The notes under the pieces are model-generated. The model did not search any database and was not told the origin of the DNA. It was given only the letters and a program-made list of their open reading frames with translations. DNA of 64,000 nt from a virus (lineage: Duplodnaviria > Heunggongvirae > Uroviricota > Caudoviricetes), in IMG/VR virus record IMGVR_UViG_2740892442_000004; one strand, 5' to 3'. Of this stretch, positions 16,598 to 54,365 are shown piece after piece (position 1 is the stretch's first letter; every line of letters starts with the position of its first letter). A program made the translations under genes and the position numbers.

Positions 16598-16692
16598 ACA
16601 AAACAGCCTTAACGATAAGTAACCACTTACGATAGATAATGATATATTTATATAAGAAGTTGAACGCTCATTAGAAAACAAAGGAAAAACGC

Positions 16693-17928
16693 ATGACTAC
16701 TACTGCACTGCAAAATGAAAAAAATCCTTCTGATTACCTTGTTTGCAAGTGGTGCGGAAAATCATTTCACTATTTTAAGTCCCATGTAGCCAATGGTAAT
16801 TGCGAGGGCATTCCTGAGTCAGTAAAAGATGCCGATCCTGACACCGTACTGAAAATGTACACAACACAGTTTCCAGATGAGCCAACGCTATCGAAAAAGG
16901 CACTTGATGCAATTCAAGCTAAACGTGCCGAGCAAAAAAGCGAAATGGCCAAATCATCTGGCGTGACCAGTAGCCCAGGCTACACAGGCACAGTTGAGTA
17001 CAAGACAGATCTGGTCGCAGCTCACGAACTGCTAAATGTAACGGTGAAAGAACTCGGAACAAAACGTGGGACGCCGCTCATGGTTAGCGTCAACGTCAAT
17101 ACGCCGTTTCCAGAGTTCGTTCCTGAAGTGAAGAAGGGATACGTATATGGCGACTTCGAACTGATCAAAGACATTTTCATGATGCTTGAACTTGGCATAC
17201 CTGGCTATTTGTGGGGTCATGCAGGAACAGGCAAATCTTCATTGCCTACACAACTATGTGCTTTGCTCAATCGTCCGTTAATCCGTGCCCAACATACAGC
17301 ATCAATGGAAGAGGCTCATGTTACGGGACAAATTCTGGCGCGTGATGGCTCTACGTATTTCGAGCCTGGCTTGCTTGCGCTCGCAATGAAGCATGGCTGG
17401 GTTTACCTCGCGGATGAATACGACTTTGCGTTTCCACAGATTCTTGGCGTGTATCAGCCAGTGCTGGAAGGTGAAGCGTTGGTCATCAAAGAGGCGACTC
17501 CAGAATGGCGTCGCATTACTCCGCATGAACGGTTTGCTTTCATTGGCACTGGCAACACGAACGGATCTGGTGATGAAACCGGCTTGTACCAGGGTACAAA
17601 CATCCAGAACGCCGCGAACTTTTCGCGTTTTGGCATCGTTTCGAATGTGAAATACATGAGCAAAGAGGCAGAGATCAACATGTTGATAAATGCCGGTATC
17701 GTGGATGAATACGCAGAAAAGATGGTTAAGTTTGCCGGTATCGTTCGCGATGGATACGAAGAACACCTTATCAGTCAGCCAATTGGCCCTCGTGAACTTT
17801 TGTTGTCGGCCAAGATTGGAATGATGCGAGGCGACTTTGTGACAGGTATTGAGCGTTCTTTCATTAACAAACTCCCTTCAGCTTCTGCACAAGCGGCTCG
17901 TGAAGTTGTTCAAAAAATATTTGGTTAA
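16693..17928 (+). CDS. AAA+ ATPase (CobS/MoxR-like)
   Basis: Walker A GHAGTGKSS, Walker B VYLADEYD; 411 aa. Confidence 0.65.
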   Translation: MTTTALQNEKNPSDYLVCKWCGKSFHYFKSHVANGNCEGIPESVKDADPDTVLKMYTTQFPDEPTLSKKALDAIQAKRAEQKSEMAKSSGVTSSPGYTGTVEYKTDLVAAHELLNVTVKELGTKRGTPLMVSVNVNTPFPEFVPEVKKGYVYGDFELIKDIFMMLELGIPGYLWGHAGTGKSSLPTQLCALLNRPLIRAQHTASMEEAHVTGQILARDGSTYFEPGLLALAMKHGWVYLADEYDFAFPQILGVYQPVLEGEALVIKEATPEWRRITPHERFAFIGTGNTNGSGDETGLYQGTNIQNAANFSRFGIVSNVKYMSKEAEINMLINAGIVDEYAEKMVKFAGIVRDGYEEHLISQPIGPRELLLSAKIGMMRGDFVTGIERSFINKLPSASAQAAREVVQKIFG

Positions 17929-18108
17929 TCGTGCGTAAAGGATGTTTCGGCTCTCTTATCGCTGCTTCTGAAACTGGTAAGGCTTGTCTGGTGTGTCCAG
18001 ACAAGCCCGATTGTCACCAATCAGCAAAAGAAGTTGCGATTTCGATGCATGGGAAGTTCGTAGGCTTCCCCAATGACAAAATCAAAAAAACCAGAAAGGT
18101 AAAAACAC

Positions 18109-21100
18109 ATGAAGGCACTGATGGTTCGAACTGACTTCTCACTTGGGGAGTCGGCTCTAAAAGCAGAAAACGCGGTGAAGATTGCCAGAGAAGCTGGCTA
18201 CACCGCTGTAATTTCAGCAGATAGCATGAATATTGCGAGCGTTATTCCACTACAACGTGCCGCTGGTGACGACATGGCGGTTATTTGTGGTGTGAAACTA
18301 AACATTGTTGATGATCCCACATACGAGCACCGGGCTAAACTTGCTAAAGAATCTATGAGATGTATGGAATCATTAGAGCGGGGACGTAACTACTCGTTTA
18401 CCGCTCTAATTAAAAATGAGCAAGGATATCGCGACATCTGCGAACTAATGACGGCGGCCAACACACGAGAACAGTTCTACTTTGTACCGCGTCTCTCGCT
18501 CGAACAGTTGGTTTCTACATATGCCAAAGGCAACATCATCCTGCTTACTTCCGACATCGGTAGCGTGTTCCAACGCAACGATTTTGCAAAAATCATAAGC
18601 ACACTGATTACAGCGGGTGGAAAAGACAACTTCTATAGTGTGGTTTATCCGCACCCTACTCCATTCTACGACCAGATTAACGTCCGGGCGATGAAAGTCG
18701 CCAGCGCATTGAAAATAGAGCCAGTGGCGTTCTATCCCGCTTATTACGAATCGATCGACGATGCAGACATTAAAGACATTGCGCACATGGTTACGAACAA
18801 CATCAAAATCGACCAGCCGCATCGTCTGCGTATCCCCCACCAGCGAGATAACGCCGTCAATGGTCGCCGCCATCTCCTTGAGGCGCTTAAAGCCTTCTCC
18901 GTTCGCATGGATGTGCCGGTAACAGCTGCAATGGCCTCAACAACGCAGGATACCATTATCGATGCCTGCACATGGCGCTGGCATGAATTGCCGCCAGCAC
19001 TGCCAAAGATGGCAGACGACGAGCCTGCAACGCTTATGAAACTGGCTGTTGCAGGGCTGCGTAAACGTCTTACCACAAAAGAGTTTGGCTACACACCACC
19101 TGCTTCTGAGAACAGGGTTTATGTTGAGCGGCTAAAGTACGAAATGGACACGCTGACTCGCCTGGGATTTTGTGGTTACTTCCTGATGGTACGCGATCTG
19201 ATGAATCATAGTCGTGAAACTGGCATTCCCGTTGGGCCTGGTCGTGGTTCCTCTGCCGGTTCTCTGGTGGCGTGGTGCATAGGCATAACCAACGTCGACC
19301 CAATCCGTCACGGTCTTCTGTTTGAGCGTTTCATCAACCCTGAGCGTCTCGACTTGCCGGATGCGGACTTGGACTTCAGCCAGGCACGTCGCCATGAGGT
19401 GATCGAGTATCTGAATGAACGCTACGGCGAAGATTACGTTGCGGGTATTCCGAACTTCACCTACCTGGGCGCAGCCTCTGCACTACGTGATACCGCTCGT
19501 ATTTATGGTGTGGAGTCCGCAGATATGGCGGTATCAAAAGAACTGAAGAACGTCGAGGATGATAGCCTTCCATTGGAAGAGCTGCGCGAACAACTGGCAA
19601 GTCTCGACAAATACGCAACAAAATATCCTGATGCATTCAATGCAGCCTGCAAGTTACAAAGCCTTATGCGTGGCTTTGGTAGACATGCGGCAGGGATGAT
19701 CGTAGCAGGTGTTCCTCTGACAGAACGTACACCGGTTGAGCGCCGTGGTGACGCGCGTTGTATCGCATTTGACAAGCGTTACTGCGAGGCTATGGGCCTA
19801 ATTAAGCTGGACGTGCTTGGCCTGGCAACTCTCGATTTGCTCGATAGTGCAAAACTCTACATAAAAGAGAACACAGGTGAAGATATCAATCTTGATGCCA
19901 TTTCTCTTGAAGATCGCAAGGTGCTGGATGGTTTTGCTGCTGGGTACAGTCAAGGTGTTTTCCAGCTTGAATCAGGCCCAATGCGCAAGCTGCTTAAAGA
20001 TTTAGGTGGTGGAATTGAGCCAATGAGCTTTAAAACGGTCGTCGCTACAACTGCGCTCTTCCGGCCGGGGCCAATTCAATCAGGCATGTTGGATGACTAT
20101 GTTTCTGTCGCCAAAGGCTTTATGACGCCGGAATCATTACACCCCGTTCTTGATGAACTTACCGCGGAAACAAATGGCGTGATTCTCTATCAGGAACAGA
20201 CGATGAACGCGACTCGATTGCTTGCCGGCTTCACAATGGCTGAAGCTGACGCTGTGCGTTCCGCAATCGGTAAGAAGAACATGGAAAAAATGAAGAGCAT
20301 GGGCGAGAAGTTCATCGTTCAGGCTCAAGCTGGCTGGATAGACGTTGAGCTGGAAGATGGCACTACACAGCGCATTCACCGTGCGGAACATTTTAAATGC
20401 GAAGACGGAACTCTGAAAACTGTCGAAGAGGCACTTGAGCACGGCGCAAAACTACCTATAAACGCAGTACGCGTTACAGCGTCACATCCAGGGCTATCAG
20501 AGATGAAAGCGAAGGAGATCTGGACCGCATTTGAGAAAAACGGAGCCTATCAGTTCAATAAATCACACTCCGTTGCTTATTCTTTAATCAGTTATCAGTC
20601 TATGTGGCTAAAGACGCACTACCCTGCTGAGTTCTTCGCAGCTGCGCTCACCATTCTGGGCGAGGATAAGCATCAGGGGCTGGTGAAGGATGCGCTGACC
20701 TATGGCATTCGCGTATTGCCACCAGACGTTAATGTGTCATCTAACCGAATTGAGATCCGCACACTCGAAGACGGCAGTCAGGCACTGTATGCGCCATTCT
20801 CTGCTGTGAAAGGCTGTTCTGAAAATGGTTGTCAGGCAATTATGCGTGCGCGTGAGAAAGTTGGTGGCAAATTCGAGTCAGTGGCACAATTCGATGAAGC
20901 GGTCGAGAAGCGTGCATGTAACAGTCGTGTACGCGAGTCGCTTCATAAAGTAGGGGCTTTTGCGTCAATTGAGCCAGGCAGTCTGCCAGCAACTGATCCT
21001 GAACGACTGCGCGACCAGGCTGAGCTGATGGGCAATCTCATCATTGACGCTGTTAAAGCATCACGTCCGTTCGAAATGAATCCTAAGCGTTCTGCCGAAA

Positions 21101-21627
21101 TCAACGTACTCATGACACGTATGGCGGCTGAAATGGGCTTGGGTGAGGAGTTGATACGCCCGACTATTGGTATTAAACCCAAAATCATGATCATTCTGGA
21201 CAATGCGAACGGCAATGACGCTCGTACCGGCTACTTCATGGAGAACGGATACGACGACTTTAAGGCAAAACTACTGACAGTTGGAGATCTGCGCATGGGC
21301 GATCTTTATGTCACGGGTGTTTGTAAGAAGGTTAAGGACAAAGAGAAAGACTATACCAAAGACGAGATAGGCCAGTTCACAGACTTTATGCGGGAAGAAA
21401 TTAATCTTGTACGACCAACCTACATTTTGACGTGTGGTAGTCGTTCAACCGCACTATTTAACAATAAGAGTAAACCATCAGATCTGATTGGTCGTAAGGA
21501 GTACTTCCCAGAGCTTGATGCAACCGTCTTCTACGGATTTAACCCGAATATCCTGTACTTCCGACCGGAAGAAGGAGAGCGACTGGAGGCCATTCTGGCT
21601 GATATCGCGGAGACAATAAATAAGTAA
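18109..21627 (+). CDS. dnaE: DNA polymerase III alpha subunit (DnaE-type)
   Basis: PHP N-terminus; catalytic GPGRGSSAGSLVAWCIGIT motif; 1172 aa; conserved AAAGGTAAAAACACATG leader. Confidence 0.85.
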   Translation: MKALMVRTDFSLGESALKAENAVKIAREAGYTAVISADSMNIASVIPLQRAAGDDMAVICGVKLNIVDDPTYEHRAKLAKESMRCMESLERGRNYSFTALIKNEQGYRDICELMTAANTREQFYFVPRLSLEQLVSTYAKGNIILLTSDIGSVFQRNDFAKIISTLITAGGKDNFYSVVYPHPTPFYDQINVRAMKVASALKIEPVAFYPAYYESIDDADIKDIAHMVTNNIKIDQPHRLRIPHQRDNAVNGRRHLLEALKAFSVRMDVPVTAAMASTTQDTIIDACTWRWHELPPALPKMADDEPATLMKLAVAGLRKRLTTKEFGYTPPASENRVYVERLKYEMDTLTRLGFCGYFLMVRDLMNHSRETGIPVGPGRGSSAGSLVAWCIGITNVDPIRHGLLFERFINPERLDLPDADLDFSQARRHEVIEYLNERYGEDYVAGIPNFTYLGAASALRDTARIYGVESADMAVSKELKNVEDDSLPLEELREQLASLDKYATKYPDAFNAACKLQSLMRGFGRHAAGMIVAGVPLTERTPVERRGDARCIAFDKRYCEAMGLIKLDVLGLATLDLLDSAKLYIKENTGEDINLDAISLEDRKVLDGFAAGYSQGVFQLESGPMRKLLKDLGGGIEPMSFKTVVATTALFRPGPIQSGMLDDYVSVAKGFMTPESLHPVLDELTAETNGVILYQEQTMNATRLLAGFTMAEADAVRSAIGKKNMEKMKSMGEKFIVQAQAGWIDVELEDGTTQRIHRAEHFKCEDGTLKTVEEALEHGAKLPINAVRVTASHPGLSEMKAKEIWTAFEKNGAYQFNKSHSVAYSLISYQSMWLKTHYPAEFFAAALTILGEDKHQGLVKDALTYGIRVLPPDVNVSSNRIEIRTLEDGSQALYAPFSAVKGCSENGCQAIMRAREKVGGKFESVAQFDEAVEKRACNSRVRESLHKVGAFASIEPGSLPATDPERLRDQAELMGNLIIDAVKASRPFEMNPKRSAEINVLMTRMAAEMGLGEELIRPTIGIKPKIMIILDNANGNDARTGYFMENGYDDFKAKLLTVGDLRMGDLYVTGVCKKVKDKEKDYTKDEIGQFTDFMREEINLVRPTYILTCGSRSTALFNNKSKPSDLIGRKEYFPELDATVFYGFNPNILYFRPEEGERLEAILADIAETINK

Positions 21628-21636
21628 TAAAGAAAA

Positions 21637-21658
21637 CCCGCCTGTTGGCGGGTTTATA
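21637..21658 (+). terminator. Rho-independent terminator after dnaE
   Basis: cccgcctgttggcggg followed by tttat. Confidence 0.6.
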
Positions 21659-21930
21659 AAGAATTATGGCGCTTGTTGAGGAAGTCACTCCTCTTACGCA
21701 CTTTGTTTTGCCATGCCGGCAGTTAGCTTCTGCCTTTGACTATTCATGCGGCAACCCCGCATTTCGCCACAATGGGCAATTCACTTTTATGGAATAAACT
21801 GGCCGTTGTGTCGATTTAATTAGCATGGCCTTACCATGCTAATTTATTCAACTTGTACAATCCTACAAATCTATCCACTCAGGCTTACACCGTCTTCGTT
21901 ATTGTAGAAATGAGGATCATCAGCGTTGAA

Positions 21931-22146
21931 TCAGCTTAGAGCAACGACATTTGCTGCTGCTGGGCCTTTAGCCCCATTCTCGATAGAGAATTCGACCTGC
22001 TGGCCTTCTTCCAAAGTGCGGAAATTATTACTCTGAATTGCCGAAAAATGTACAAAAACATCTTTACTGCCATCAGCAGGAGAAATAAAGCCAAAGCCTT
22101 TATCAGAGTTAAACCATTTTACTAAACCAGTCATTTTATTAGACAT
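21931..22146 (-). CDS. cold-shock protein (CspA family)
   Basis: [21 protein letters not shown]...[11 protein letters not shown] motifs; close to enterobacterial CspA. Confidence 0.8.
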
Positions 22147-22475
22147 AGATATTACCTTCTTAATTTTGTGAGCCACATAGTGCGGCGAGAATTTGATCTG
22201 TATAGATTGGGACTTACTTAGGCACTTAAGGAGGAGACTCACGAAGAAGGGAAATCAGAAGATAACACTGAACTGAGACTGCTTTACTAAAACTGCTTAC
22301 ATAAGGTCTGTCTTGCAAACCAACGATGCTATTAACGCATACCCCTTCTTTTCATGCAACCTTTATTTTTCAAAGATAACTAATTTTTGTCACCATTGGT
22401 TTAGTAAACGTTAACGAACCAGACGATGCCAGACACCTTTACAGAGAACAGATGCCCGCCAATTGGCGGGCATCA

Positions 22476-23075
22476 TTATGCGCATTTCGCAATATCTTTG
22501 CGGCGTTTAATCAGTTTCTCCGCAATTTGCTCTATTTCGTTGAAATCTTTCGAGACGCTGTTTCGAAGCGCCAGATTCCATTTACTCAAAGTTCGGGCAT
22601 TTTGGACAATTTGATCGCCCTCTTTAAGTCGTCCGTTATTCATGAGCCATTCAGCCACATCAGCCCAATCCCAGAGAGGAGACTGGCCTTTTATGCGTTG
22701 TACAGGGCAAGGGAAGTCGCCGCTTCCGCGCTTACCGTCTTTGAGCAACGCCACTGCCTGGCGAGACAGGTCTGTCAGTTCCGCGATATCGCTTAAGCCC
22801 ACAAGAGCCGAGTCGACGGATTCAACAATTGCACCGATACCGGCTGATTCAATATTGTCGACCGCAGATGCGATAGCTGCATCAAGTGATTGTGCTTCGC
22901 GGTCAAATTCTACATAGACGGAGTTTCCATATGCGCAAATTAGCGCATCGTCACAGCCGTTTTGGTACAGCGCGTCTTCCAGTCCTTCCGTCTCATACGA
23001 TACGCCTGAGAGCGTCAGAGTGAAGTTATAAAGCGCCATAGTTTTCCTTTGAAGATAGTTGGACAGTTTCTGCAA
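22476..23075 (-). CDS. hypothetical protein (possible DNA-binding C-terminus)
   Basis: 199 aa ORF co-directional and 25 nt downstream of the small ORF 23100-23324. Confidence 0.45.
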   Translation of the reverse strand: MQKLSNYLQRKTMALYNFTLTLSGVSYETEGLEDALYQNGCDDALICAYGNSVYVEFDREAQSLDAAIASAVDNIESAGIGAIVESVDSALVGLSDIAELTDLSRQAVALLKDGKRGSGDFPCPVQRIKGQSPLWDWADVAEWLMNNGRLKEGDQIVQNARTLSKWNLALRNSVSKDFNEIEQIAEKLIKRRKDIAKCA

Positions 23076-23099
23076 AAGGCGGCTAATGCCGCCTTGAAA

Positions 23100-23324
23100 T
23101 CATTTACAACGATCAACCATTCGTTTGATCTGTTTGGCATGGTTTTCGGGATTACCCGGAGTCGACCATACGCTCATTTGGTGAGTTTTGTGTTCACCTT
23201 CTGGATTACCGCATCGCAGTCTGCAAAAACAATGTGCAGCACCACCAGCTGCTACCCAGATCCAGCCTTTACTTAATGCATAGTCAATGGCTGCTTGAAT
23301 ATGCTTATTCGGATGTTGCTTCAT
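23100..23324 (-). CDS. hypothetical small basic protein
   Basis: 74 aa ORF; His/Cys/Lys-rich. Confidence 0.4.
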   Translation of the reverse strand: MKQHPNKHIQAAIDYALSKGWIWVAAGGAAHCFCRLRCGNPEGEHKTHQMSVWSTPGNPENHAKQIKRMVDRCK

Positions 23325-23578
23325 TCGCCTCCGATAATAGTATTCTATTCACAGTGTTGACATCTGTCAACGGCGACTGAATTTCATCCGTTCATGCCAC
23401 ACCCCCATCCATCTCATGTATGTGACCTAAAGATGGTCAGCACAGCTTACCAAAATAAGACAACTAATTATCTTCGGTGATCTCAATATTTTCCCCTGAA
23501 CAAAGTTGACATGACGCCATAAACCCGTTCTCTGTTTGATATAATTGATACAGATTTTATAAGTAGGAACCTATTAGA

Positions 23579-24010
23579 GTGAACACTGATATTTTTTCTA
23601 AAATCATGGCCGATCTGGAGTTCGACCGCGACAACCTTGAGGAAGTATGGCGTAAACAGCCACGGCTTTTAATGGAGTATGGGTCAAAACTAGCGCAGGC
23701 AGATCGAGATGTCGCAGAGGCAAAACTTAACCTTGAAGCTGTTGAAGCAAAGCTATACGACACAGAGCGTAAGAACTTGAGTATGAACGGCATTAAGTTC
23801 AACGAGTCTGTACTGGACGCTAAGGTTAAAACAAACCCACAGTATCTGTCTAAACGGCAGAAGTTGGATGAAGCACGGCACATCGCAGACATATACAAAC
23901 ATGCTGTCGCCGCCTTTTCGCATCGCCGAGACATGATCGTTCAGGCGTCAAAGATGGCCATCGTTGAATTAGAGCGATTAGGCTCTGAACGCTTTATTAC
24001 TCCCCGTTGA
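23579..24010 (+). CDS. hypothetical coiled-coil protein
   Basis: 143 aa ORF, GTG start with AGGA upstream. Confidence 0.45.
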   Translation: MNTDIFSKIMADLEFDRDNLEEVWRKQPRLLMEYGSKLAQADRDVAEAKLNLEAVEAKLYDTERKNLSMNGIKFNESVLDAKVKTNPQYLSKRQKLDEARHIADIYKHAVAAFSHRRDMIVQASKMAIVELERLGSERFITPR

Positions 24011-24127
24011 TTTTTGATAGATAATAAGTAAGCACTGATCTATCATTTAACAGCTCGAAAGAGCCACGAATGAACGAAAGCCCAACGCGCATAGCGCCAT
24101 CGGCCAAATCACAACAAGGAGAAACAC

Positions 24128-26428: not shown

Positions 26429-27502
26429 ATGGCAAAAGGAAAATCCGCACTGGCACTTGCTCTGAAAAAGAAAATCGGTAGCAACGACGAAATTCAGAAA
26501 GTAACTCATTGGATTGATACAGGCTTTCCACCGTTAAACAAAGCTATTTCTGGTCGTTACGATGGCGGCTTCCCATGTGGTCGTATCGTCGAAGTATTCG
26601 GTCCTCCAAGTGCAGGGAAAACGTTCCTTGCAACAGCAGCGATGATCTCCGCTCAAAAACAAGATGGTCTGGCGGTATTCCTCGATCATGAAAACAGTTT
26701 TGACGTTGGCCTGGCTGTCGCCAATGGCCTGAACGCAGATGAGGATGACGGTCAGTGGGTATACAAGCAGCCAGATACCTTCGAAGACTCTGTAGAGTTG
26801 ATCGGCACAATACTTAAATTGGTTCGTGATGAAGAGCTTATCCCCGAATCAGCACCAATCTGTATCGTGGCTGACTCTCTTGCGTCTATGGTTCCGAACT
26901 CCAAAGCCGAGAAGTTCGAAAAGATGGCTGAAGGCACTGCCAAAGACAAAGATCAGCTAAACATGAACGACAATACGGCACTGGCTCGTGCGACGAGTGC
27001 GAACTTCCCTACTCTGGCTTTGTGGGCACGCAAATACAACGCCTGCATCATCTTCTTGAATCAGGTTCGCACAAAAATCGGTGTAATGTTTGGCGACCCT
27101 ACTACGTCGCCAGGTGGAGATTCACCGAAGTTCTACGCTTCTGTACGTATCCGTCTTGGTGCATCGGTGATGAAGGATGGTAAAGAGAAGATCGGCCAGG
27201 ACGTAGGCGCAGAATGCATCAAAAACAAAGTTGCACCACCGTATGGCAAATGCACCTGGAAATTCTACTTCGATCCTACTCGTGGCCTCGACGTTATCGA
27301 ATCGCTCGTCGAGTACATGCTGGAAGAAGGATACCTGCCAAAGAACGCCAGCGGGCGAGTTGAAATTGGTGACAAGAAATACACCAAATCGCAGATCGTC
27401 GAGATGTATCGGGAGAAGCCACTGGCTGAAATCATTGCGGCTTTGCAGGCAATCGACGACCGAAGAGCAAAAGACAACCCCACCGAGTCAGTAGAAGAGT
27501 AA
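26429..27502 (+). CDS. RecA/UvsX-like recombinase
   Basis: Walker A GPPSAGKT; RecA-fold core; 357 aa. Confidence 0.7.
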   Translation: MAKGKSALALALKKKIGSNDEIQKVTHWIDTGFPPLNKAISGRYDGGFPCGRIVEVFGPPSAGKTFLATAAMISAQKQDGLAVFLDHENSFDVGLAVANGLNADEDDGQWVYKQPDTFEDSVELIGTILKLVRDEELIPESAPICIVADSLASMVPNSKAEKFEKMAEGTAKDKDQLNMNDNTALARATSANFPTLALWARKYNACIIFLNQVRTKIGVMFGDPTTSPGGDSPKFYASVRIRLGASVMKDGKEKIGQDVGAECIKNKVAPPYGKCTWKFYFDPTRGLDVIESLVEYMLEEGYLPKNASGRVEIGDKKYTKSQIVEMYREKPLAEIIAALQAIDDRRAKDNPTESVEE

Positions 27503-27506: not shown

Positions 27507-27531
27507 AAGGCGTCCTGTGGACGCCTTTTTT
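27507..27531 (+). terminator. Rho-independent terminator
   Basis: aaggcgtcctgtggacgcctt followed by tttttt. Confidence 0.65.
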
Positions 27532-27594
27532 ATCTCTTGAAAATATATAAGCACTTACTTATTATTTTCGCATAACAACCACATAGGAAAACAC

Positions 27595-28669: not shown

Positions 28670-28689
28670 ATCGCAATTATCTTATTAAG

Positions 28690-28703
28690 AAAACAATTTG
28701 TTT
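28690..28703 (+). promoter_or_regulatory. Palindromic AAAACAATTTGTTT element
   Basis: Same palindrome family, 17 nt upstream of ATG 28720. Confidence 0.4.
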
Positions 28704-28719
28704 AAAAGGATAAGAAAAC

Positions 28720-29476: not shown

Positions 29477-29691
29477 GTTTACAGTAAAATTTATATAAGT
29501 TAGTATCTACCTATCATGAAGATTTTTATTGAATACTTGTTACTCATCGTTTCAATAGCTTTTGTCATCGACTGCATTTTCACCGGTGTCATTCGTAAAG
29601 TCTTTTCCCCGGTGAACGACGTAGTCATAAACGCTTTGGCTATCGTGCTCGTATTTAATTCAGCATTTGATGTAATCAAAGAGGTGGCAGC

Positions 29692-30224: not shown

Positions 30225-30284
30225 AGAAAATACACTAAATGCAAACTGACTGCGGCACGTTCCGCAGTCATATTTCATAGTCGT

Positions 30285-30695
30285 CACCGCTGACAGCATA
30301 CACAATCAACTACCGCTGATAGCATATCGAGAGTCTATCTCACCGCTCACAGCATACTTTACTCGATTTTTTACCGCTGACAGCATACTTAAGACATTGC
30401 ATGAATAATGTGTACCGGTATGGGTATAACCAGAACAAAATTACCGCTGGCAGCATACGAAGGTCTGACATATACCATTAATTACCGCTGATAGCATATC
30501 CAAACTGGAATGCACTCTTCGAGGTTAGTAACCACTGGGGAGGTATGACAGAGCATTGAGTGGTGATAGATGATTTACCGCCCACAGCATACGTTCATCT
30601 CACTATACCGCTGGTAGCATATATTTAACCGTTTACAGCATACTTTTCAGAAAAATAGCCGCTGATAGCATACATTTCACCGCTGACAGCATATC
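30285..30695. repeat. Iteron array, about 11 copies (consensus ACCGCTGACAGCATAC), downstream of repA
   Basis: Degenerate direct repeats at irregular 20-70 bp spacing. Confidence 0.75.
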
Positions 30696-31788
30696 AAAGC
30701 AGTTTGAGACTATTGGAAAGGATCTCAATCATCTTGATATTTTCAGGCGTCAAATTCTGCGAAAGTTCGGTTATCTTGTTGATAATGTTCTGTTTGGCAT
30801 CAATTTCCCCAGCTTTCTCATCTAGTTTTTTGGGTTCGATGTCTTCAGGTTTTGGCGGTGCGACTTTGAGTTTTGGATTGCGGCTGTGAATCTGGATATA
30901 GATCGACCGCCCTCGCTTAATCTCGCTGTATTCGAGATAACCCAAATCTTGGAGAGCTTTTAAGCCGTTGCGTATAGTCTGATTCTGCGAGCTGACATTC
31001 CTGCTACTCAAATTGAGTCGCGCACGCAATCGAGCAAGCGATACCGGCGCAGGCTTGGTTGGAAGACTTTCGATGAAGGTGTACAGAGCCTGTGCTGTTT
31101 CTTTGCGTGGTAGCTTATTGATAACCTTTAACTGCAAAAGAACCTTATGGTCAAAGCGATATAGTTCGGCCAGCTTCGGTTCTGCATAGAACACCACCGT
31201 ATCTTTCTGCTCGTTGTAGTCCACGCTATTGATGAGGTGCACCATCAGAAGCGAGATCTTGTTAGAGCCGTCGACGTTCTTTTCTTCATACGTTCTCTGG
31301 AAAGACAGAGTTGTACGCATGATCTTCAAAAGACTGTTTGTAAGCCGGTCGCGGAGTGTTTTGCGGATCTGTGACGATGGATAGCCACAAAACTTCGCAA
31401 ATTTCGTGATGCTTAACTCGACACGACCGTTAGGTTCGCCGTATTCTGCCAGCGAACGCACAACGCCCACCCACGTTTTGAAATCATGATCCATGTCGAG
31501 ACGAGGACCGGTTATCTTGATATCGGAATAGCCTTCAGAACGGGCTACTTCGAGCTGAACAAGCTCCTTTGAAGCATCGATCTCATTTGGCTTGTTACGC
31601 TTGCTGTATTTTGTCCCCTTGAGCGTGGGCACGAACAATCCCAGCCGCATCAACGCAATTGGTTGGACTGTATTGTTGCTATTAGGGACAAGTTCCCCTG
31701 TGTACAATTCAAGGGAACCTTCTTCAAAGTTGTCGAGATTATCTTCTACTTCTTTGTTATTTTTACCTTTTTTATTTTTTGTGGACAT
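30694..31788 (-). CDS. repA: Replication initiator RepA-like protein
   Basis: Gene bracketed by iteron arrays; start set at MSTKNKK (AAGG Shine-Dalgarno) because ORF N-terminal extension to 31908 overlaps upstream iterons. Confidence 0.6.
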   Translation of the reverse strand: MSTKNKKGKNNKEVEDNLDNFEEGSLELYTGELVPNSNNTVQPIALMRLGLFVPTLKGTKYSKRNKPNEIDASKELVQLEVARSEGYSDIKITGPRLDMDHDFKTWVGVVRSLAEYGEPNGRVELSITKFAKFCGYPSSQIRKTLRDRLTNSLLKIMRTTLSFQRTYEEKNVDGSNKISLLMVHLINSVDYNEQKDTVVFYAEPKLAELYRFDHKVLLQLKVINKLPRKETAQALYTFIESLPTKPAPVSLARLRARLNLSSRNVSSQNQTIRNGLKALQDLGYLEYSEIKRGRSIYIQIHSRNPKLKVAPPKPEDIEPKKLDEKAGEIDAKQNIINKITELSQNLTPENIKMIEILSNSLKLL

Positions 31789-31807
31789 GTGGACACCTTT
31801 GTCATTC

Positions 31808-31910
31808 AACCGCTGACAGCATACTTGATTTGCCGCTGACAGAATACCAAAAACAGTTGGCAGCATACGGTGAACCGCTGACAGACTATCAATTACCGCT
31901 GACAGCATAC
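31808..31910. repeat. Iteron array, 4-5 copies, upstream of repA (origin-proximal)
   Basis: aaccgctgacagcatac, gccgctgacagaatacc, accgctgacagactatc, taccgctgacagcatac. Confidence 0.7.
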
Positions 31911-31950
31911 ATGAACATGGCTTCAGACCAGTCGTGGCGCGGCTTACAGC

Positions 31951-32754: not shown

Positions 32755-33008
32755 CCCTCCAGATCGTATATTGGCGTAGATAGAATCTACGCCCCCTCAA
32801 AATAGCTCTCATAGCGTTCTACAGTGATCCTGTCTTATTTTTAGTCATACAGACAAGCAAAGTTGCGCCACGATAAATAGGTATATACTTACTTATAAAT
32901 TTTGTATATTAAGGCGCTCGTTTCATTCCTAACATACCGTTATGCATAGTTGTTTACCTCCTCATTGCTCTTAGAATTTGTATCAAAATAACCACAAAGG
33001 AAAAATAC

Positions 33009-37552: not shown

Positions 37553-37625
37553 TTTCATTGATAGGTAAGTGCTTATCTATTAACATGGGCCACTATATTT
37601 AGTGGCCCTCTTTATTTGGTGATAC

Positions 37626-39939: not shown

Positions 39940-40002
39940 CATATGGTGGGGGATATCCCCACCTTCTCTTTGATTTGTAAGCCTTGTTTAAACACATAAG
40001 AT

Positions 40003-40014
40003 AACAACTTGTTT
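40003..40014 (+). promoter_or_regulatory. Palindromic AACAACTTGTTT element
   Basis: Same palindrome family, about 30 nt upstream of nrdB start. Confidence 0.4.
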
Positions 40015-40045
40015 AAACGCACCAAAAAAGAAAAAGGAAAAACAC

Positions 40046-41265: not shown

Positions 41266-42135
41266 ATGAACTTTACCAAACTGACTGACCACCTGAAACT
41301 TGCCACCGATCGACTCATTGGATTTAAGCCAGAACCATATGAGTTGCATGAAGGCCATGGTGTAGCCACTGAAAGTATTTACAAGATGGTCGATCAGTTT
41401 CATGAACTCTTCCAGCATCCGAGACGCGTTATGCCGACACCAGAGCTGCTTCGTCTCCGTGCAAGCCTGATTCATGAAGAAGCTGTAGTGGAAGGTATTC
41501 CAGCTGCAATGAATGGGGATATTGAGCAACTGCTGGATGCAATGGCCGACTTTTTATACGTTGGTGTTGGTACGATGGTCGCCATCAAAGGTGGTATTTC
41601 TACCGGCATGACCTATTACACGCAGGAACAGAGCATTGATCGCTTTATGCAGACAATTTTTGTGCCCGGTAACACTGTTTTCGATGATATGGCAATGCCA
41701 TTTCAGGAAGCTCGTGAGGCGTCATGTATGCTCGAAGAGCTGGCAGATAAACTTGAGAACAAGACTGTTAAGGATTCTGAGCTGATTCAGGAACTGCGCC
41801 GTGTCATGAACAAAATCTATGTGGCGTGCATGATGACCTATCGACTGGCTGATTTCCTCGGTATCAATGTAGTCGAGCTGGTTGGCGAAATTCATCGGTC
41901 TAACATGACAAAATTATGGCCTGCTGATGTAGAGGAACGTCACCAGGCTGTGGCCAACTGCAAATACGACTCTTCAGACCTGGGATTTCGCCATGCTGAT
42001 GGTACCGATAAGATGATCGGTTTTCGAATTTCCGATGGAAAGATTCTGAAGTCTCCAACCTATAGTGATGTCGATTTATCCTCCTTTGTTGAGCAAGCTA
42101 AAGCCTCAGCAATGTACGGAATGATCAAAAAATAA
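41266..42135 (+). CDS. putative all-alpha NTP pyrophosphohydrolase (MazG/HisE-like)
   Basis: Glu-rich helical motifs IHEEAVVEG...DIEQLLDAMADFLYV; weak. Confidence 0.35.
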   Translation: MNFTKLTDHLKLATDRLIGFKPEPYELHEGHGVATESIYKMVDQFHELFQHPRRVMPTPELLRLRASLIHEEAVVEGIPAAMNGDIEQLLDAMADFLYVGVGTMVAIKGGISTGMTYYTQEQSIDRFMQTIFVPGNTVFDDMAMPFQEAREASCMLEELADKLENKTVKDSELIQELRRVMNKIYVACMMTYRLADFLGINVVELVGEIHRSNMTKLWPADVEERHQAVANCKYDSSDLGFRHADGTDKMIGFRISDGKILKSPTYSDVDLSSFVEQAKASAMYGMIKK

Positions 42136-42203
42136 TTGTAGGTAGTTATCTATCTATGTATATTGTGTTGGCGCGTTAAATTCCTGAAACAACTATTCGT
42201 TTT

Positions 42204-42229
42204 TGGTGGCCTATGGCCACCATTTTTTT
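42204..42229 (+). terminator. Rho-independent terminator
   Basis: tggtggcctatggccacca followed by ttttttt. Confidence 0.65.
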
Positions 42230-42306
42230 ATCTATCTGGCCTTGTTCTCTCAATAAATGTAAACTCACGTAATGAATAAGTGGTTACTTATCTTTGTGAG
42301 GTTTTT

Positions 42307-43410
42307 GTGTCACTCCTTTTGAATCGTGAGCATACGAACGGTCAGGTAACAAACGCATCGTATGCAAAAGTTATTGAGACGGTGCTTAAAAGCGGCGTGC
42401 AGGCTGATGATCGCACAGGCACTGGTACTTTAAGCACCTGCTACGTTCCCTCTTACTACATGCTTACTGGTGGGACTGTGCCGCTTATTTCTGGAAAGGC
42501 GGTAAATCTTAAGCCACTGCTTGTCGAACTTGAGTGGTATCTGAAAGGCACGGGCAACATCCAATTTCTCAAGGATAACGGCGTTAAGATTTGGGATGCA
42601 TGGGCCGATGAGAATGGCGATTTGGGGCCGGTTTACGGTAAGCAGTGGCGTCGATGGGAAGATACCCGCATCGTGAGCCATAGTGAATATCTGAGCAAGA
42701 TCGCTACTTTCCGTGAACGCGGGTACAAAGTCGAGGGATACCTGGGTATCAGTGAAGATCGCGTAGTGCTGTCCCGTGAAATCGATCAGCTACAGCGTAT
42801 TGTCGATACACTGCGCACGAACCCTACCGATCGTCGCATCATGCTTAACGCATGGAACGTAGGCGAGCTTGAGGATATGAAACTGCCACCTTGCCACTTT
42901 GTCTTCTCTTTGTGGAGTCGTGAGCTGGATTTTGAAACCCGTTTAACGATGGCAACTGACATTGGTCTTCAACACAGTCGCCTCGGTTACGAGTCTATCT
43001 ACACCAAGATGCTATACGATCTGGAGATGGACGGCAGTGTTACTGAAGCTGAACTGGATGAACTTGGAATCCCCAAACGCATCCTCAACTCCTGCCTCGT
43101 ACAGCGTAGCGTAGACACTTTTGTTGGTATGCCATTCAATATTGCTGGCTATGGCATTCTCACTCATTTTCTCGCGAAGATTACGGGTCACATGGCCGGT
43201 GCATTTGTGCATTTTGGCTTTGACGTGCATTTGTACAACAACCACATGGAAGGTGTGTGTGAGCTAATGAAACGACAGGCTCCAGAGCATTCAGATCCGG
43301 TCGTTATTTTCCCTCATGAATGGTCAGAGTTGGATGATTTCAAATGGGACGAGGTTTTAATTCTTGGCTATGACCCTCTATCGTGGATCAAGGTTCCAGT
43401 GGCGGTGTGA
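42307..43410 (+). CDS. thyA: Thymidylate synthase (ThyA-like) with internal insertion
   Basis: DRTGTGTLS, GPVYGKQWRRW, catalytic PPCHF, LVQRSVDTF...PFNIAGYG; about 50-65 aa insert after the catalytic Cys; start uncertain (ORF opens 42280). Confidence 0.7.
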   Translation: MSLLLNREHTNGQVTNASYAKVIETVLKSGVQADDRTGTGTLSTCYVPSYYMLTGGTVPLISGKAVNLKPLLVELEWYLKGTGNIQFLKDNGVKIWDAWADENGDLGPVYGKQWRRWEDTRIVSHSEYLSKIATFRERGYKVEGYLGISEDRVVLSREIDQLQRIVDTLRTNPTDRRIMLNAWNVGELEDMKLPPCHFVFSLWSRELDFETRLTMATDIGLQHSRLGYESIYTKMLYDLEMDGSVTEAELDELGIPKRILNSCLVQRSVDTFVGMPFNIAGYGILTHFLAKITGHMAGAFVHFGFDVHLYNNHMEGVCELMKRQAPEHSDPVVIFPHEWSELDDFKWDEVLILGYDPLSWIKVPVAV

Positions 43411-47058: not shown

Positions 47059-47139
47059 CATTTCTGGCGCGTTTTATTTGATTGCCAGACATAAAATCAA
47101 ATGCAAAAATAGGTATTTACTTACCTATCGAGAAAGAAG

Positions 47140-47733: not shown

Positions 47734-47755
47734 TTTGTTCTGGCGTCTGTAATTA

Positions 47756-47812
47756 GCCTGCTTCTGTATATATAAATAACTACATATTAATTATTAATAT
47801 ACGGAAGCAGGC
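47756..47812. repeat. Long imperfect hairpin, second copy of element at 782-837
   Basis: gcctgcttctgtatatat ... atatacggaagcaggc followed by tgttttg. Confidence 0.5.
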
Positions 47813-47918: not shown

Positions 47919-48149
47919 ATGTCATACCCGACTAATGTCGTTGCGCTCGTAGAGAGCGATTTTCTGGCCCAGGCCCGTGAAATGATGAAAGACCGCGAGC
48001 AGGCTTTCAACTTGTACGAATGGGCAATTAAGTGCTTGCATCTTGGGGAGCATCGCGAACTTGTTGAACAGCTTTTAGGTGAGTTGATCAACGAGGTGTT
48101 TGCCTTGAATGTTCAACTACATGGTCGAGAAAATAATCAATCGAAATGA
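47919..48149 (+). CDS. hypothetical protein
   Basis: ATG 47919 preceded by AAGGA; ORF opens at 47895. Confidence 0.4.
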   Translation: MSYPTNVVALVESDFLAQAREMMKDREQAFNLYEWAIKCLHLGEHRELVEQLLGELINEVFALNVQLHGRENNQSK

Positions 48150-48169
48150 TAGATAAGTACAAACTATTC

Positions 48170-48650: not shown

Positions 48651-48734
48651 TTTATTTTAATAATTATTAACACGCACGCGTGTGCGCACGCGCGAGGAAA
48701 AAAAATCGGCGCGGCGCTTGATTCAGGAGTTTAT

Positions 48735-49325
48735 ATGACGACGAAGACACCAGCCCGATCGCAAGAAAAAACTCGCAAAAAAGCCAAAAACAAAAATTCT
48801 CCCCGCACCAATTCCACAACGCCTGTCGTAGAGTTCAATCCCCAGCTTAAAACCGTGAAAATCTTCAGTGATGGCTCTTGCCTTAAAAATCCGGGTGGCC
48901 CGGGCGGTTACGGTATCGTTCTTCAGTATCGTGGAGAGGAACGCGAGTTCTCAGATGGTTTTCATAGCACCACCAATAACCGCATGGAGATGATGGGGGC
49001 ACTTATCGGGCTGGAGCGTTTGAAATATCCATGCAACGTTATTTTGCACTCTGATAGCCAGTATCTGAAAAACGGCATGACACAGTGGATGAAATGGTGG
49101 AAACGCAATGGATGGGTGACTTCTGACAAAAAACCGGTAAAGAATGTTGATCTGTGGAAGCGTCTGGATGAGGCTGCAAGTCGACATAATGTTCGCTGGA
49201 AGTGGGTTAAAGGTCACGCCGGGCATCGTGAAAATGAAATATGTGATCGACTCGCGAAGATCGCAGCTTTTTCCGCAGCAGATATGCCTCACAAGAAAGA
49301 TATTGGTTTTGTTTACAACAAGTAG
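48735..49325 (+). CDS. rnhA: Ribonuclease HI with Lys/Arg-rich N-terminal extension
   Basis: [49 protein letters not shown] RNase H motifs; AGGAG Shine-Dalgarno. Confidence 0.8.
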
Positions 49326-49473
49326 TAAGTAAGTGTTTACCTATCATTTTAAATCATGTATCTTATCGGCGTCAGGATGACAATGTGTCGGTAAGACACA
49401 GTTCCAGGATGGAACGAGAAAGGCGGCTGGCAATCGCCAGCCGCAACTCTTTCTGACACTGGATGGAGTCCAC

Positions 49474-49968: not shown

Positions 49969-49977
49969 GGCGGTTGT

Positions 49978-50175: not shown

Positions 50176-50230
50176 CGGTTGTTAGTGCATATGCATTGAC
50201 CGTCTTTTCGTAAGCAATTCATGTAACTAG

Positions 50231-50245
50231 AAAACAACTTGTTTT
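50231..50245 (+). promoter_or_regulatory. Palindromic AAAACAACTTGTTTT element
   Basis: Same palindrome family, upstream of ATG 50269. Confidence 0.4.
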
Positions 50246-50268
50246 AACAAATAACAAAAGGAAAGCAC

Positions 50269-50852: not shown

Positions 50853-50856
50853 TGAC

Positions 50857-50882
50857 AAGGGCCAAATGGCCCTTGTGTTTCG
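50857..50882 (+). terminator. Rho-independent terminator
   Basis: aagggccaaatggccctt followed by a T-rich tract. Confidence 0.55.
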
Positions 50883-50991
50883 TTGACCGAAATAGAGAGT
50901 TTGCACCTTTACGTTTAGCTTGCTCCCCTTTTATGCCACATCACAATAAAGCCAATAAGAAAACAACTTGTTTAAGCATTAGGAAAAACAC

Positions 50992-51561: not shown

Positions 51562-51616
51562 TCTGATATGGCCGCATGATCGGCCATATTGTGTTGATAA
51601 AAAACAAGGATGAAAA

Positions 51617-51898: not shown

Positions 51899-51900
51899 TT

Positions 51901-52515: not shown

Positions 52516-52618
52516 CCAATGCCTTTATTTGAAGGATTGCCTGTTTATTTCTATTTAGTACCTTTTCATTTTTGAAATAATTGCACCATTAAACAAATCA
52601 CTTCTTAATGGTGCAATT

Positions 52619-54304
52619 ATGAATACAGCCCTTTCCATCATCGACGATGCCAACTCAAACACTGCTATCGACTATCGGCAGGAAATGAACGTCATCCACG
52701 AAATTGTGGCCGAGTGCGAGAAAGAGATCGCCTTCATGTATCAGGTACACGACTTCGTTTATGGCGACGAACGCCACAACATGATTAATCGCCTGCTGAG
52801 ACTAAACCATCGACCAGATGAAGATCGCTCGCGTTTAAATCGAGGTTGGTTGGATAAAGTCGATCTGGAATGGGTGAAACAGAATATTTGGGCCGAGTAC
52901 TGGAGGAAGGTCACGGACATGACTAACGTTTTGCTGATCATGCCAGCTTCCCGTCGAGATGAGTGGCGCGAGCAGTTTATAGAGGGCAAACAGGAAGTCA
53001 TCAAAACTGACAGAACCGGCTACCAGATGAAGGTTAAAGAGTTCGTTGGTGTACCGGAGTTCAAAGCAGAAACGGTCATACCCACGATGCTTAATTTGCT
53101 GAATGACAGGCACAAATATCTCTCTGAGCGCGTGTATGGCTTGTTTAAGGCGCTGAGTCCTGCGCACAAGACAAATAAGACAAACGGTTTCAGCGAACGT
53201 CTGATAATCGCTGACTGCATTTCTGATTTCTGGCGGGACAGCGTTAGTGTGAACTATCGCAAAGAGGACTATATCGACGATCTGCGTGTCTTGCTTCATT
53301 TCTTCGCGCACAAAGAATTTATTACCATCAACCGCACTGCTGAGGTGCTATCAGCTGCGTATCGGGCAAACGACTGCCAGACCGGTGACTGGATGAACGT
53401 CGATGGAAATCTAATGCGCGTGAAGATGTTCAAGAACGGCAACGTTCACTTTGAAATACATCCTGACGTGGCCTGGAAGTTGAATGAGGTGCTGGCTTAC
53501 AGTATGCCTGCTGCAATCCCCGCGCCATGTCGCACCGCGCCAAAAACACGGGCACCAAAGCAGTTCGGGTTAATCCAGAAGACGATCTCCGTGCCGGTTC
53601 GCACTGCGCTTCGTGACGGGCGATTTAGCAAAGACAAAGGCGTATGGTACTTCTCTGATTCAGCTCTCCAGAAGTCGCAGGTGGAAGAGCTTGAGCGCAC
53701 ACTGAGCTTCATTGGCGGCGTGCAGGAGAAAAAGCACTGGCAGTTCCCGTATGAGATCGGCCATACGCTAAATACGATTGTGGCTACCGGTTTAATACCG
53801 GATACAAAATCACACCAGTTCTACCCTACCCCACGCTTGATTGCTGAGTACGTTGCCAGAGCCACTGAATTGAAGCCTGGTGAGAAGTTGTTGGAGCCTC
53901 AAGCCGGACGTGGGGATCTTCTGGCCTATATTAACGCCGATCTGGAAGATGTTACCTGCATAGAAATCGCACCTCTCTTCGCTGATATCCTGCGTGGAAA
54001 AGGGTATACGAACACGATTTGCTGCGACTTCATAAAGTGGTCTGAGGACAACGCAGGTTATCAGTTCGACAAAATCGTTATGAACCCGCCGTACTCGCTT
54101 GGTCGTCATAGAGAGCACACGCTGGCTGCGCTGGGGCATCTGAAAGTCGGCGGGCGTCTTGTAGCAGTATTGCCGGGCACTGCGCCAATACTGGACTGGA
54201 TGACGATGGATAATTACGTTTATGCCAGAGGGAAGTCGTTTACCAACGAGTTTGAAGACACAGGGATCACAGTCAGCGTATACGTTTTCAAACGCGTTAA
54301 ATGA
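52619..54304 (+). CDS. N6-adenine DNA methyltransferase with about 380 aa N-terminal domain of unknown function
   Basis: C-terminal FYPTP, EPQAGRGDL (motif I), MNPPYS (motif IV). Confidence 0.6.
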   Translation: MNTALSIIDDANSNTAIDYRQEMNVIHEIVAECEKEIAFMYQVHDFVYGDERHNMINRLLRLNHRPDEDRSRLNRGWLDKVDLEWVKQNIWAEYWRKVTDMTNVLLIMPASRRDEWREQFIEGKQEVIKTDRTGYQMKVKEFVGVPEFKAETVIPTMLNLLNDRHKYLSERVYGLFKALSPAHKTNKTNGFSERLIIADCISDFWRDSVSVNYRKEDYIDDLRVLLHFFAHKEFITINRTAEVLSAAYRANDCQTGDWMNVDGNLMRVKMFKNGNVHFEIHPDVAWKLNEVLAYSMPAAIPAPCRTAPKTRAPKQFGLIQKTISVPVRTALRDGRFSKDKGVWYFSDSALQKSQVEELERTLSFIGGVQEKKHWQFPYEIGHTLNTIVATGLIPDTKSHQFYPTPRLIAEYVARATELKPGEKLLEPQAGRGDLLAYINADLEDVTCIEIAPLFADILRGKGYTNTICCDFIKWSEDNAGYQFDKIVMNPPYSLGRHREHTLAALGHLKVGGRLVAVLPGTAPILDWMTMDNYVYARGKSFTNEFEDTGITVSVYVFKRVK

Positions 54305-54365
54305 TAGGTAAATGCTTACTTAATTTGTGTAAGAATGTAATAACTAAACGATAAGAGAAAAACAC

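Follow-up and report, generated by a model that had tools for sequence, protein, structure and literature searches.

What function can a short palindrome serve that recurs, with little variation, in the gaps between the genes of a virus? The question is raised by a stretch of 64,000 nucleotides from the IMG/VR virus record IMGVR_UViG_2740892442_000004 (Duplodnaviria; Heunggongvirae; Uroviricota; Caudoviricetes), the whole of which is called the window here, and for which a first-pass annotation made from the letters alone had proposed a family of intergenic palindromes serving as promoter, as operator for an element-encoded transcription factor or as RNA-processing site. The family has proven to be real: a 22-bp dyad, rATArGTAAGT/ACTTACyTATy (the stroke marks the symmetry centre), occurs in the window in 13 strong copies, compared with 0 in simulated sequence, and in 4-5 weak or variant ones. 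Most likely it represents the dispersed operator regulon of a plasmid prophage; for elements of the SSU5/pHCM2 type, literature searches have returned no description of the motif. In a megablast search with window positions 16000-24000, Escherichia phage Cyrano has been matched at 98% identity over 97% of the query, and Salmonella phage SSU5 and Klebsiella phage-plasmids at ~80%, by which measure the window is part of an SSU5-like phage-plasmid. Cyrano (OV696614.1) is pLF82, the SSU5-like phage-plasmid of E. coli LF82; its plasmid form replicates at ~5.5 copies per cell, and ciprofloxacin induces it (PMC9928086). According to its annotated record, the part of this ~108-kb genome that the window spans is that of replication, recombination and nucleotide metabolism together with the plasmid replicon.

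A Strict Dyad at Intergenic Positions

Thirteen window sites have been found with ≤5 mismatches to the consensus GATAAGTAAGTACTTACTTATC, and none in 20 second-order Markov simulations; at ≤6 mismatches the sites number 16 versus 0.3 expected. In a symmetrised position weight matrix (PWM) derived from the 13 sites, T3, A4, G6, T7, A8 and their mirror positions are nearly invariant. When applied to the whole of Cyrano, this matrix has retrieved 20 sites of ≥18 bits, 19 of which fall within the 13% of the genome that is non-coding by annotation. It had been pointed out beforehand that an AT-rich intergenic composition might by itself account for such a frequency, and this objection does not hold, as a Markov model trained solely on intergenic sequence has yielded 0.015 sites for the same search (maximum 1 in 200 runs). 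The geometry is equally strict: with 6 nt between them, the half-sites ATARGTA and TACYTAT (≤2 mismatches) give 18 matches, compared with 0, 2, 0 and 0 for spacings of 4, 5, 7 and 8. Chance and AT-rich composition have thus been ruled out by the window simulations, the intergenic simulations and the spacing control, and a mosaic-boundary or recombination signal has been ruled out as well, since the homology breakpoints between window and Cyrano do not fall systematically at the copies. Beyond the window, Cyrano has 7 motif sites in its 27-kb structural and lysis region and 1 before the ParB-like gene, so that the motif family is genome-wide.

Several particulars of the earlier description have to be revised. 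The family had been placed from 16598 onwards and was said to be centred on TTACTTA; its copies run from 921 to 54324, and the symmetry centre lies between T11 and A12 (GT/AC). Twelve of the 14 sites listed at that time are full copies, found at offsets of 0-13 nt and including a variant with a one-base deletion at 16614, and the other two are a degenerate copy at 6424 (8 mismatches) and a core-only copy of 14 bp at 13957-13970. The strong copies at 11923-11944 and 29494-29515 had been overlooked. A position after a stop codon and 15-80 nt before the next start applies roughly: the distance to the next start ranges from 0 to 128 nt, with about half of the copies at 15-80 nt and five at ≤14 nt, and two copies overlap a stop codon, the motif itself holding TAA/TAG.

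Variants of the Motif Across Lineages

For comparison, 80 IMG/VR loci around CobS homologues have been assembled, which represent three close lineages with CobS proteins ~99%, 81% and 78% identical. By comparison with PLSDB they correspond to E. coli, Salmonella/Enterobacter/Citrobacter/Yersinia and Klebsiella types, and the consensus is common to all of them. Within these lineages, the motif is among the best-conserved blocks of orthologous intergenic regions, and the flanks diverge. The syntenic Klebsiella pneumoniae element pINF102.5, with a CobS of 56% identity, has ~25 copies of the variant rTATGTAwrT/AywTACATAy, that is, of the half-site form TATGTA-N6-TACATA, and these are found at junctions as in Cyrano (terminase/portal, capsid/Ig-like, upstream of parB, thyX, ruvC/nrdA, sbcD and cobT/cobS). 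At those gene junctions again, p5388_2 of Acinetobacter baumannii (CobS 41% identical) carries ~30 copies of TATTAGTAAGCGCTTACTAATA. The skeleton GTA-N6-TAC is shared by all three motif types, and the surrounding positions are lineage-specific. As both the ATArGTA type and the TATGTA type are found in plasmids of K. pneumoniae, the protein that reads the sites is encoded by the element and has co-evolved with some 20-30 of them.

Association of the Dyad With Promoters

The relation to promoters has been examined for 23 copies with a consensus promoter scan and with our own implementation of the same rule. Strict sigma-70-like promoters overlap 8 of the 23 on the sense strand and 1 on the antisense strand; when the flanks were shuffled and the motif was kept fixed, a mean of 2.2 overlaps has been obtained (P about 0.003). 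The promoter function proposed at the outset is therefore partly right, as about a third of the copies are embedded in promoter-like sequence, and several others precede a -10 element of the TGn type. In a recurrent layout, the -35 element ends at motif position 1 and the -10 element begins at position 19, the palindrome being the 17-bp spacer, as in TTGAAA-17-TATGAT at Cyrano 3521, the sole copy within a gene, the portal gene, close to its 3' end. In several motif-bearing promoters, 10 of 12 positions agree with the sigma-70 consensus and the spacing is optimal, and TTGAAA-17-TATTAT, TTGAAA-17-TATGAT and TTGATC-16-TATAAT are near-consensus. Promoters of this kind should not depend on an activator, an argument for negative control.

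The spacer layout is seen most clearly at 27542-27563, just past the recA terminator (27507-27527), where a full copy fills the spacer of TTGAAA-17-TATTAT (27537-27565, 10/12 matches) and where TTGAAA, motif and -10 are kept in all lineages. Upstream of the gene for a gp32-like single-stranded DNA-binding protein (SSB), a full copy at 24023-24044, conserved across lineages, occupies the spacer of the promoter-like TAGATA-17-TATCAT (24018-24046), and in the ruvC-nrdA gap the copy at 37560-37581 occupies that of TTGATA-17-TAACAT (37558-37586). Two copies lie over the start site of a promoter-like sequence situated immediately ahead of them. The one at 11923-11944 spans about +6 to +27 of TTGATC-16-TATAAT (11883-11910), and the glutaredoxin ATG (11987) follows 42 nt later; the one at 47108-47129 overlaps the start of the TG-extended TTGCCA-17-AAAAAT (47082-47110), and 10 nt separate it from the ATG of dam (47140). 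A TGT-containing -10-like element is found 4-9 nt past the palindrome at 5515, 54303, 8934 and 32876. The first of these (GATAAGTAGATACATACTTATA, 5515-5536) is followed after 4 nt by the extended -10-like TGTAAGAAT, which is kept at the orthologues in Cyrano (34729) and SSU5 (38177), with the ATG at 5579, and the same TGTAAGAAT stands 3 nt past the full copy at 54303-54324, which covers the stop at 54304 and is followed by the ATG at 54366. The best copy of the window (GATAAGTATTTACTTACTTATC, 8934-8955; 2 mismatches, 30.6 bits) lies 9 nt past the stop at 8924, upstream of a tRNA cluster, and is kept in SSU5 at 41772, and the copy at 32876-32897 lies upstream of an sbcD-like gene (ATG 33009), at a junction that is also occupied in pINF102.5 (43366) and p5388_2 (11098).

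At 921-942, GATAAGTAAGTAACTACCTACC (4 mismatches, 26.1 bits; Cyrano counterpart 31295) is 11 nt before the ATG at 954; the copy at 29494-29515 adjoins the ATG at 29516 and has overlapping promoter-like matches at 29478 and 29490; the one at 42271-42292, past a terminator (42204-42222), lies 14 nt before the thyX GTG at 42307, and its pINF102.5 orthologue (34066) stands ahead of a thymidylate synthase gene; a further full copy, at 49324-49345, covers the stop codon of the RNase H gene. Among the weaker sites, the variant at 16614-16635 in the cobT-cobS gap has its one-base deletion in the right arm, as established from an alignment of 54 distinct orthologous intergenic regions, and is followed ~17 nt downstream by a conserved -10-like TATAAGA. 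The degenerate copy at 6424-6445, of which the left half alone is good, lies past a terminator (6391-6407) and 9 nt before the ATG at 6455, and its Cyrano orthologue (35606) scores 16.7 bits. Weak copies have also been noted at 42133-42158, over the mazG stop codon (8 mismatches, PWM 9-12.6 bits), and at 48148-48169, over the stop at 48149 (6 mismatches, 14.8 bits).

At the copy at 37560 and at Cyrano 15528, the -10 element adjoins a terminator-like hairpin (window 37558-37608, with the hairpin itself at 37587-37608; Cyrano 15526-15580), and judged by position the predicted start would fall inside the 5' arm of the hairpin. This order of motif and hairpin is also seen after the capsid gene in Cyrano, pINF102.5 and p5388_2, and the arrangement at 37560 recurs in pINF102.5 (38744-38784). 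In such promoter-hairpin units, transcripts arriving from upstream would end, and the unit's own transcript, starting in the 5' arm, would escape. The 83-nt leader of the gp32-like SSB gene (24045-24127) is conserved across lineages nearly as well as coding sequence; with the complementary, GC-rich segments that it contains (GCGCATAGCGCC, GGCC), it suggests a translational operator of the T4 gene 32 kind.

A Candidate Repressor

The likeliest reader of the motif may be found in the window itself. An Xre-type helix-turn-helix repressor of 128 aa, encoded at 13540-13926 on the minus strand, is 100% identical to CYRAN_45 of Cyrano; its Pfam match to HTH_19 is weak and below the Pfam threshold, PHROG 8 describes it as 'transcriptional regulator', and a sequence search of solved structures with this protein has given no match. 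In the Cyrano lysogen, expression has been reported mostly for toxin-antitoxin genes, a few genes of unknown function and the 'putative repressor' CYRAN_45, the latter 10-fold over background (PMC9928086). These lysogen-expressed genes include CYRAN_45, but no gene directly behind a strong copy. The repressor gene has a minus-strand promoter, TTTACA-16-TAATAT (14000-13973), and directly downstream of its -10 lies the core-only copy GGTAAGTGCTTACC (13957-13970): the sequence TGGTAAGTrCTTACyGA found there corresponds to motif positions 5-18, and the block TGGTAAGTrCTTACyGATATTACA is the best-conserved part of the repressor upstream region in the three lineages. A comparable core copy past the -10 of the homologous repressor gene has been found in pINF102.5. 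By analogy, a weaker core copy at the repressor's own start is a classical layout for negative autoregulation.

The protein also appears to vary as the motif does. The recognition helix reads GYKNANNLSLIKSGK with essentially no change throughout the three motif-sharing lineages, in which overall protein identity goes down to 56-66%, and it is changed where the motif differs, to GFPNVNTLSIIKAGK in pINF102.5 and to GI-NQNMVSFIVRGK in the Acinetobacter homologue. The other DNA-binding candidates behave differently. Cyrano and pINF102.5 differ in motif, yet both keep the putative strand for DNA contact of the ParB-like protein (HQTMRFKV) and the helix of the winged-helix protein CYRAN_123; Cyrano and SSU5, in turn, have the motif in common, yet the strand of the ribbon-helix-helix (RHH)-like CYRAN_117 is not the same in the two. 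We would therefore lean towards the Xre-type repressor, which the first-pass annotation had already singled out for a binding test, as binder over these other candidates.

Two near-consensus LexA boxes have been observed in the window, TACTGTTTACTTATACAGTA (12399-12418) and TACTGTATGTATATACAGTA (59901-59920). A UmuD-like gene (59935) follows the second; the first stands ahead of the integrase-like open reading frames (ORFs), which converge into the 3' end of the repressor gene, and may provide an SOS-linked route of induction. The integrase-like gene itself (12443-13545) is split into two ORFs (12443-13258 and 13258-13545) and the nrdA-like gene (37626-39939) into three overlapping ones (37626-37868, 37970-38833 and 38707-39939), each being one gene in Cyrano; either frameshift mutations or sequencing errors could be the cause.

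A second dispersed palindrome, AGAAAACAAnTTGTTTAA (AAACAAnTTGTTT), lies ~10 nt past a GATAAT-like -10 and 15-30 nt before start codons. It has been located at 1703-1720, 14454-14471, 28688-28705, 39999-40016, 50229-50246, 50958-50975, 63735-63752 and 63786-63803 on the plus strand and at 55500-55517 on the minus strand. Its sites are at operon heads (terS, parA, helicase, cobT, nrdB and many small genes), with two copies before terS and a further one before parA in Cyrano, and it is unchanged in pINF102.5 (9 copies). Probably it is the operator of another regulator, one whose specificity has been conserved.

Probable Silencing in the Plasmid State and Its Alternatives

The motif, its geometry and conservation, its DNA-level character, its association with promoters and its co-evolution between lineages are shown by the sequences; a repressive effect and the identity of the binder are what we infer, and we consider it probable, if well short of certain, that the copies are dispersed operators through which the element's own repressor silences most of the genome in the plasmid state. 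A dimeric, element-encoded DNA-binding protein would occupy duplex operators with the half-site ATArGTA, the skeleton GTA-N6-TAC and flanking TA steps. Where the operator lies in the 17-bp spacer, takes the place of the -35 before an extended -10 or covers the start, the bound protein would exclude host RNA polymerase, and at gene junctions within long operons it could also stop read-through. The ~15 copies of the window and ~20-25 of the whole element would then form one regulon, by which replication, nucleotide-metabolism, recombination, structural and lysis genes are kept silent during plasmid maintenance. The Xre-type repressor (13540-13926) would be the likeliest binder, limiting its own synthesis through the weaker core-only copy.

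Several observations weigh against this reading. About half of the 23 copies have no recognisable promoter and only about a third satisfy the strict definition, and for five copies, 0-14 nt away from a start codon, the sequence ahead shows no clear promoter. Past the best copy, the tRNA region appears to be expressed in the lysogen (CYRAN_40, 15-fold; PMC9928086). In the core copy of the repressor promoter, the outer ATA/TAT are missing, elsewhere the most conserved positions of the motif, and the co-variation of helix and motif, seen in three sampled motif types, is confounded by phylogeny, since every gene of the element co-varies with lineage. The palindrome AAACAAnTTGTTT, standing at the start sites of operon heads, could equally be the primary operator of the master, Xre-type repressor. 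Moreover, SSU5 and a contig (L052) have no repressor-integrase module and have retained the motif copies. In L052, a gene for a secreted protein of 164 aa (6556-7050) replaces the integrase-repressor-cro-like module, and in SSU5 (42525-42761) the whole segment from the tRNAs to cobT is missing; the retained palindromes suggest that both are recent virulent or defective derivatives. The loss of the repressor would be compatible with a recent deletion, as in the mycobacteriophage D29, and speaks neither for nor against the binder assignment.

The same layout might also be read as positive control, the palindrome being the recognition element of an element-encoded activator, or of a factor appropriating the polymerase, that defines a class of lytic promoters. 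T4 MotA boxes at -30, Mu C sites and the late-promoter inverted repeat of P1 Lpa offer parallels. Many copies indeed take the -35 position ahead of a -10 or TGn -10, some hold a MotA-box-like TGCTTA, the element has T4-like replication and recombination genes, and silence in the lysogen fits activation as well as it fits repression. We nevertheless regard this as rather unlikely. The near-consensus promoters with 17-bp spacing should need no activator, placements that range from about -40 to +15 relative to the -10 are unusual for one, and the full dyad symmetry of the palindrome is unlike a MotA-type monomer. Early, late, lysis and maintenance genes all have copies ahead of them, so that no single temporal class is defined. 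Moreover, neither tblastn with the sigma-like protein of A. baumannii nor the published annotation has revealed a sigma or MotA homologue in the window or in Cyrano. The query, a sigma-70-family protein encoded next to cobS in p5388_2 (L089, 9298-9963), has no tblastn homologue in the window, Cyrano or pINF102.5, and a phage sigma factor has thereby been rejected.

With a similarly small probability, the sites might serve another protein or another purpose, namely long-range silencing, genome organisation or partition by a ParB/KorB-like protein or by the RHH protein encoded next to uvsW. The dispersed palindromes of RK2 KorB (12 in number) and the dispersed centromere sites of N15 are parallels, and a full copy is found 14-16 nt upstream of the ParB-like gene in Cyrano (105106), pINF102.5 (13590) and p5388_2 (52930). 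The RHH-like CYRAN_117 is, in addition, expressed in the lysogen. These points are opposed by the contact strands described above, as that of the ParB-like protein stays constant across lineages with different motifs and that of CYRAN_117 changes between the motif-sharing Cyrano and SSU5, and ParB is not among the genes reported to be expressed in the lysogen (PMC9928086).

A hairpin formed by the transcribed palindrome, acting as processing site, as stabiliser or as translational operator near the Shine-Dalgarno sequence, is far less probable. The intergenic gaps that hold the copies are indeed transcribed, and several copies immediately precede ribosome-binding sites; 8 of the 13 window copies fold better than most shuffles, and an RNA-binding repressor is at hand in the FljA-like 'repressor of phase-1 flagellin' encoded outside the window (Cyrano 100780-101301; Pfam E = 1e-80). 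However, the other 5 of the 13 form no hairpin, folding energies ranging from 0 to -8.5 kcal/mol (-2 to -8.5 kcal/mol in those that fold), and the arms show no compensatory changes. When copies were oriented by their neighbouring genes in four sets (window, further Cyrano copies, pINF102.5 and p5388_2), G-U has been counted at 41 mirror pairs, A-C, nearly as common, at 36 and other mismatches at 113. Position 5/18 in the 13 window copies reads A-T 4, A-C 5, G-C 2 and G-T 2 times, which matches independent choices of R and Y, so that the arms vary independently. Loop- and stem-equivalent positions alike are kept as sequence rather than as pairs, no Rfam family matches at motif positions, and at predicted promoters the copies sit in the untranscribed spacer. 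On the pair counts, the folding and the Rfam search, the RNA-processing site named in the first-pass annotation has been rejected. Independent arms together with copies that do not fold identify the motif as a double-stranded DNA site for a symmetric protein by which both halves are read. Among the three functions put forward at the beginning, the operator for an element-encoded transcription factor is the best supported, on account of the strict dyad geometry, the independent arms, the lineage variants within one host genus and the core copy at the repressor start. A host transcription factor or nucleoid protein recruited by the element is scarcely credible, for although TACYTAT would fit the NarL heptamer consensus TACYYMT, and the outer GATAA..TTATC may resemble a Fur box, layout and spacing are unlike NarL 7-2-7 sites or the 19-bp Fur box, and the two motif types within K. 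pneumoniae plasmids, with a third in Acinetobacter at the same junctions, have led us to reject it.

Relation to Known Systems

The closest functional parallel, by analogy, would be the C1 repressor of P1, with 22 dispersed operators (PMC8546580). P1, too, is a plasmid prophage of ~100 kb, in which many scattered operators for one repressor stand before replication, ssb, dam and regulatory genes, and its repressor gene is autoregulated. The C1 operators differ in being asymmetric sites of 17 bp, ATTGCTCTAATAAATTT, and C1 is not of the Xre type, in contrast to the perfect 22-bp dyad with its strict N6 core and the candidate 128-aa Xre-type binder; the motif consensus does not match the C1 operator consensus. 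In Cluster A mycobacteriophages (L5 with gp71, Bxb1, TipsytheTRex), 20-30 repressor sites have been described, mostly in short intergenic gaps, some of them being promoter operators and one, upstream of the repressor gene, having been proposed as autoregulatory; the motif co-varies with the repressor, and in D29, a lytic derivative, the sites persist although the repressor is gone (PMC6550527, PMC9283540). The present sites resemble these stoperators in their genome-wide distribution over intergenic gaps and inside operons, with 20 in Cyrano. Stoperators, however, are asymmetric, oriented with transcription, 13 bp long, bound by a monomer and mostly not associated with promoters, whereas the present sites are palindromic, hence without the orientation that distinguishes stoperators, and at least a third are embedded in promoters, a block of elongation being putative. 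No sequence is shared with either P1 C1 operators or Cluster A stoperators.

Looser parallels may be drawn to RK2 and to T1-like phages. The KorB operators (OB) of RK2 are palindromic and dispersed, some at promoters and some distant from them, and serve global silencing. KorB is a CTP-dependent clamp of the ParB family with an operator of 13 bp, TTTAGCSGCTAAA; the likeness lies in the dispersed palindromes and the difference in the ParB-like protein of the present element, which does not co-vary with the motif. T1-like phages (T1, Stevie), which are enterobacterial siphoviruses, have 16-20 mostly intergenic copies of a 22-bp repeat (PMC4319613); these repeats are asymmetric, transcription-oriented and unrelated in sequence (VWATAGCAYKWWTTGYTAAAAV), and the phages are virulent.

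Phage-plasmids of the SSU5/pHCM2 type carry resistance genes and are widespread among clinical E. coli, Salmonella, Klebsiella, Yersinia and Acinetobacter, and both their silence as plasmids and their lytic switch are essentially unstudied. The motif provides a map of controlled promoters, a candidate repressor and three specificity types by which immunity groups are predicted, and for annotation a copy marks a likely boundary of a transcription unit. One may tentatively go further, with a proposal we regard as possible and would not yet favour: throughout the SSU5 supercluster, from Enterobacteriaceae to Acinetobacter, an ancient system of genome-wide silencing would operate through ~20-30 palindromic promoter-operator modules at fixed junctions, a dyad counterpart of the stoperators. 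Their half-site specificity would have co-evolved with a small Xre repressor and would define immunity groups for coexistence and superinfection, and some modules would be fused to terminators so that read-through stops and the module's own transcript escapes.

Further Features of the Element

A repA-like gene at 30694-31908 on the minus strand is flanked by at least 10 iterons ACCGCTGACAGCATAC (window 30283-30702 and 31806-31918). The segment 30255-31922 has no similarity to Cyrano, which indicates a different replicon on a backbone that is otherwise 96-99% identical. In the recA-like gene, Cyrano has an insertion of 1264 bp (55256-56520) relative to window 26618-26620, which may be an intein or a homing-endonuclease element. 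An Rfam match to the cspA thermoregulator (185.7 bits, window 21906-22324, minus strand) coincides with a cold-shock protein ORF at 21931-22146 on the same strand, and this locus is flanked by the Pol III alpha gene and by hicAB genes. Finally, an inverted repeat of 56 nt, GCCTGCTTCTGTATATAT...ATATATACGGAAGCAGG with an AT-rich palindromic centre, has been found in two copies at window 782-837 and 47756-47811, the first of which has the motif-like AATAAGTAACTTATT in its centre, and in Cyrano a third copy extends across the record ends, immediately ahead of terS.

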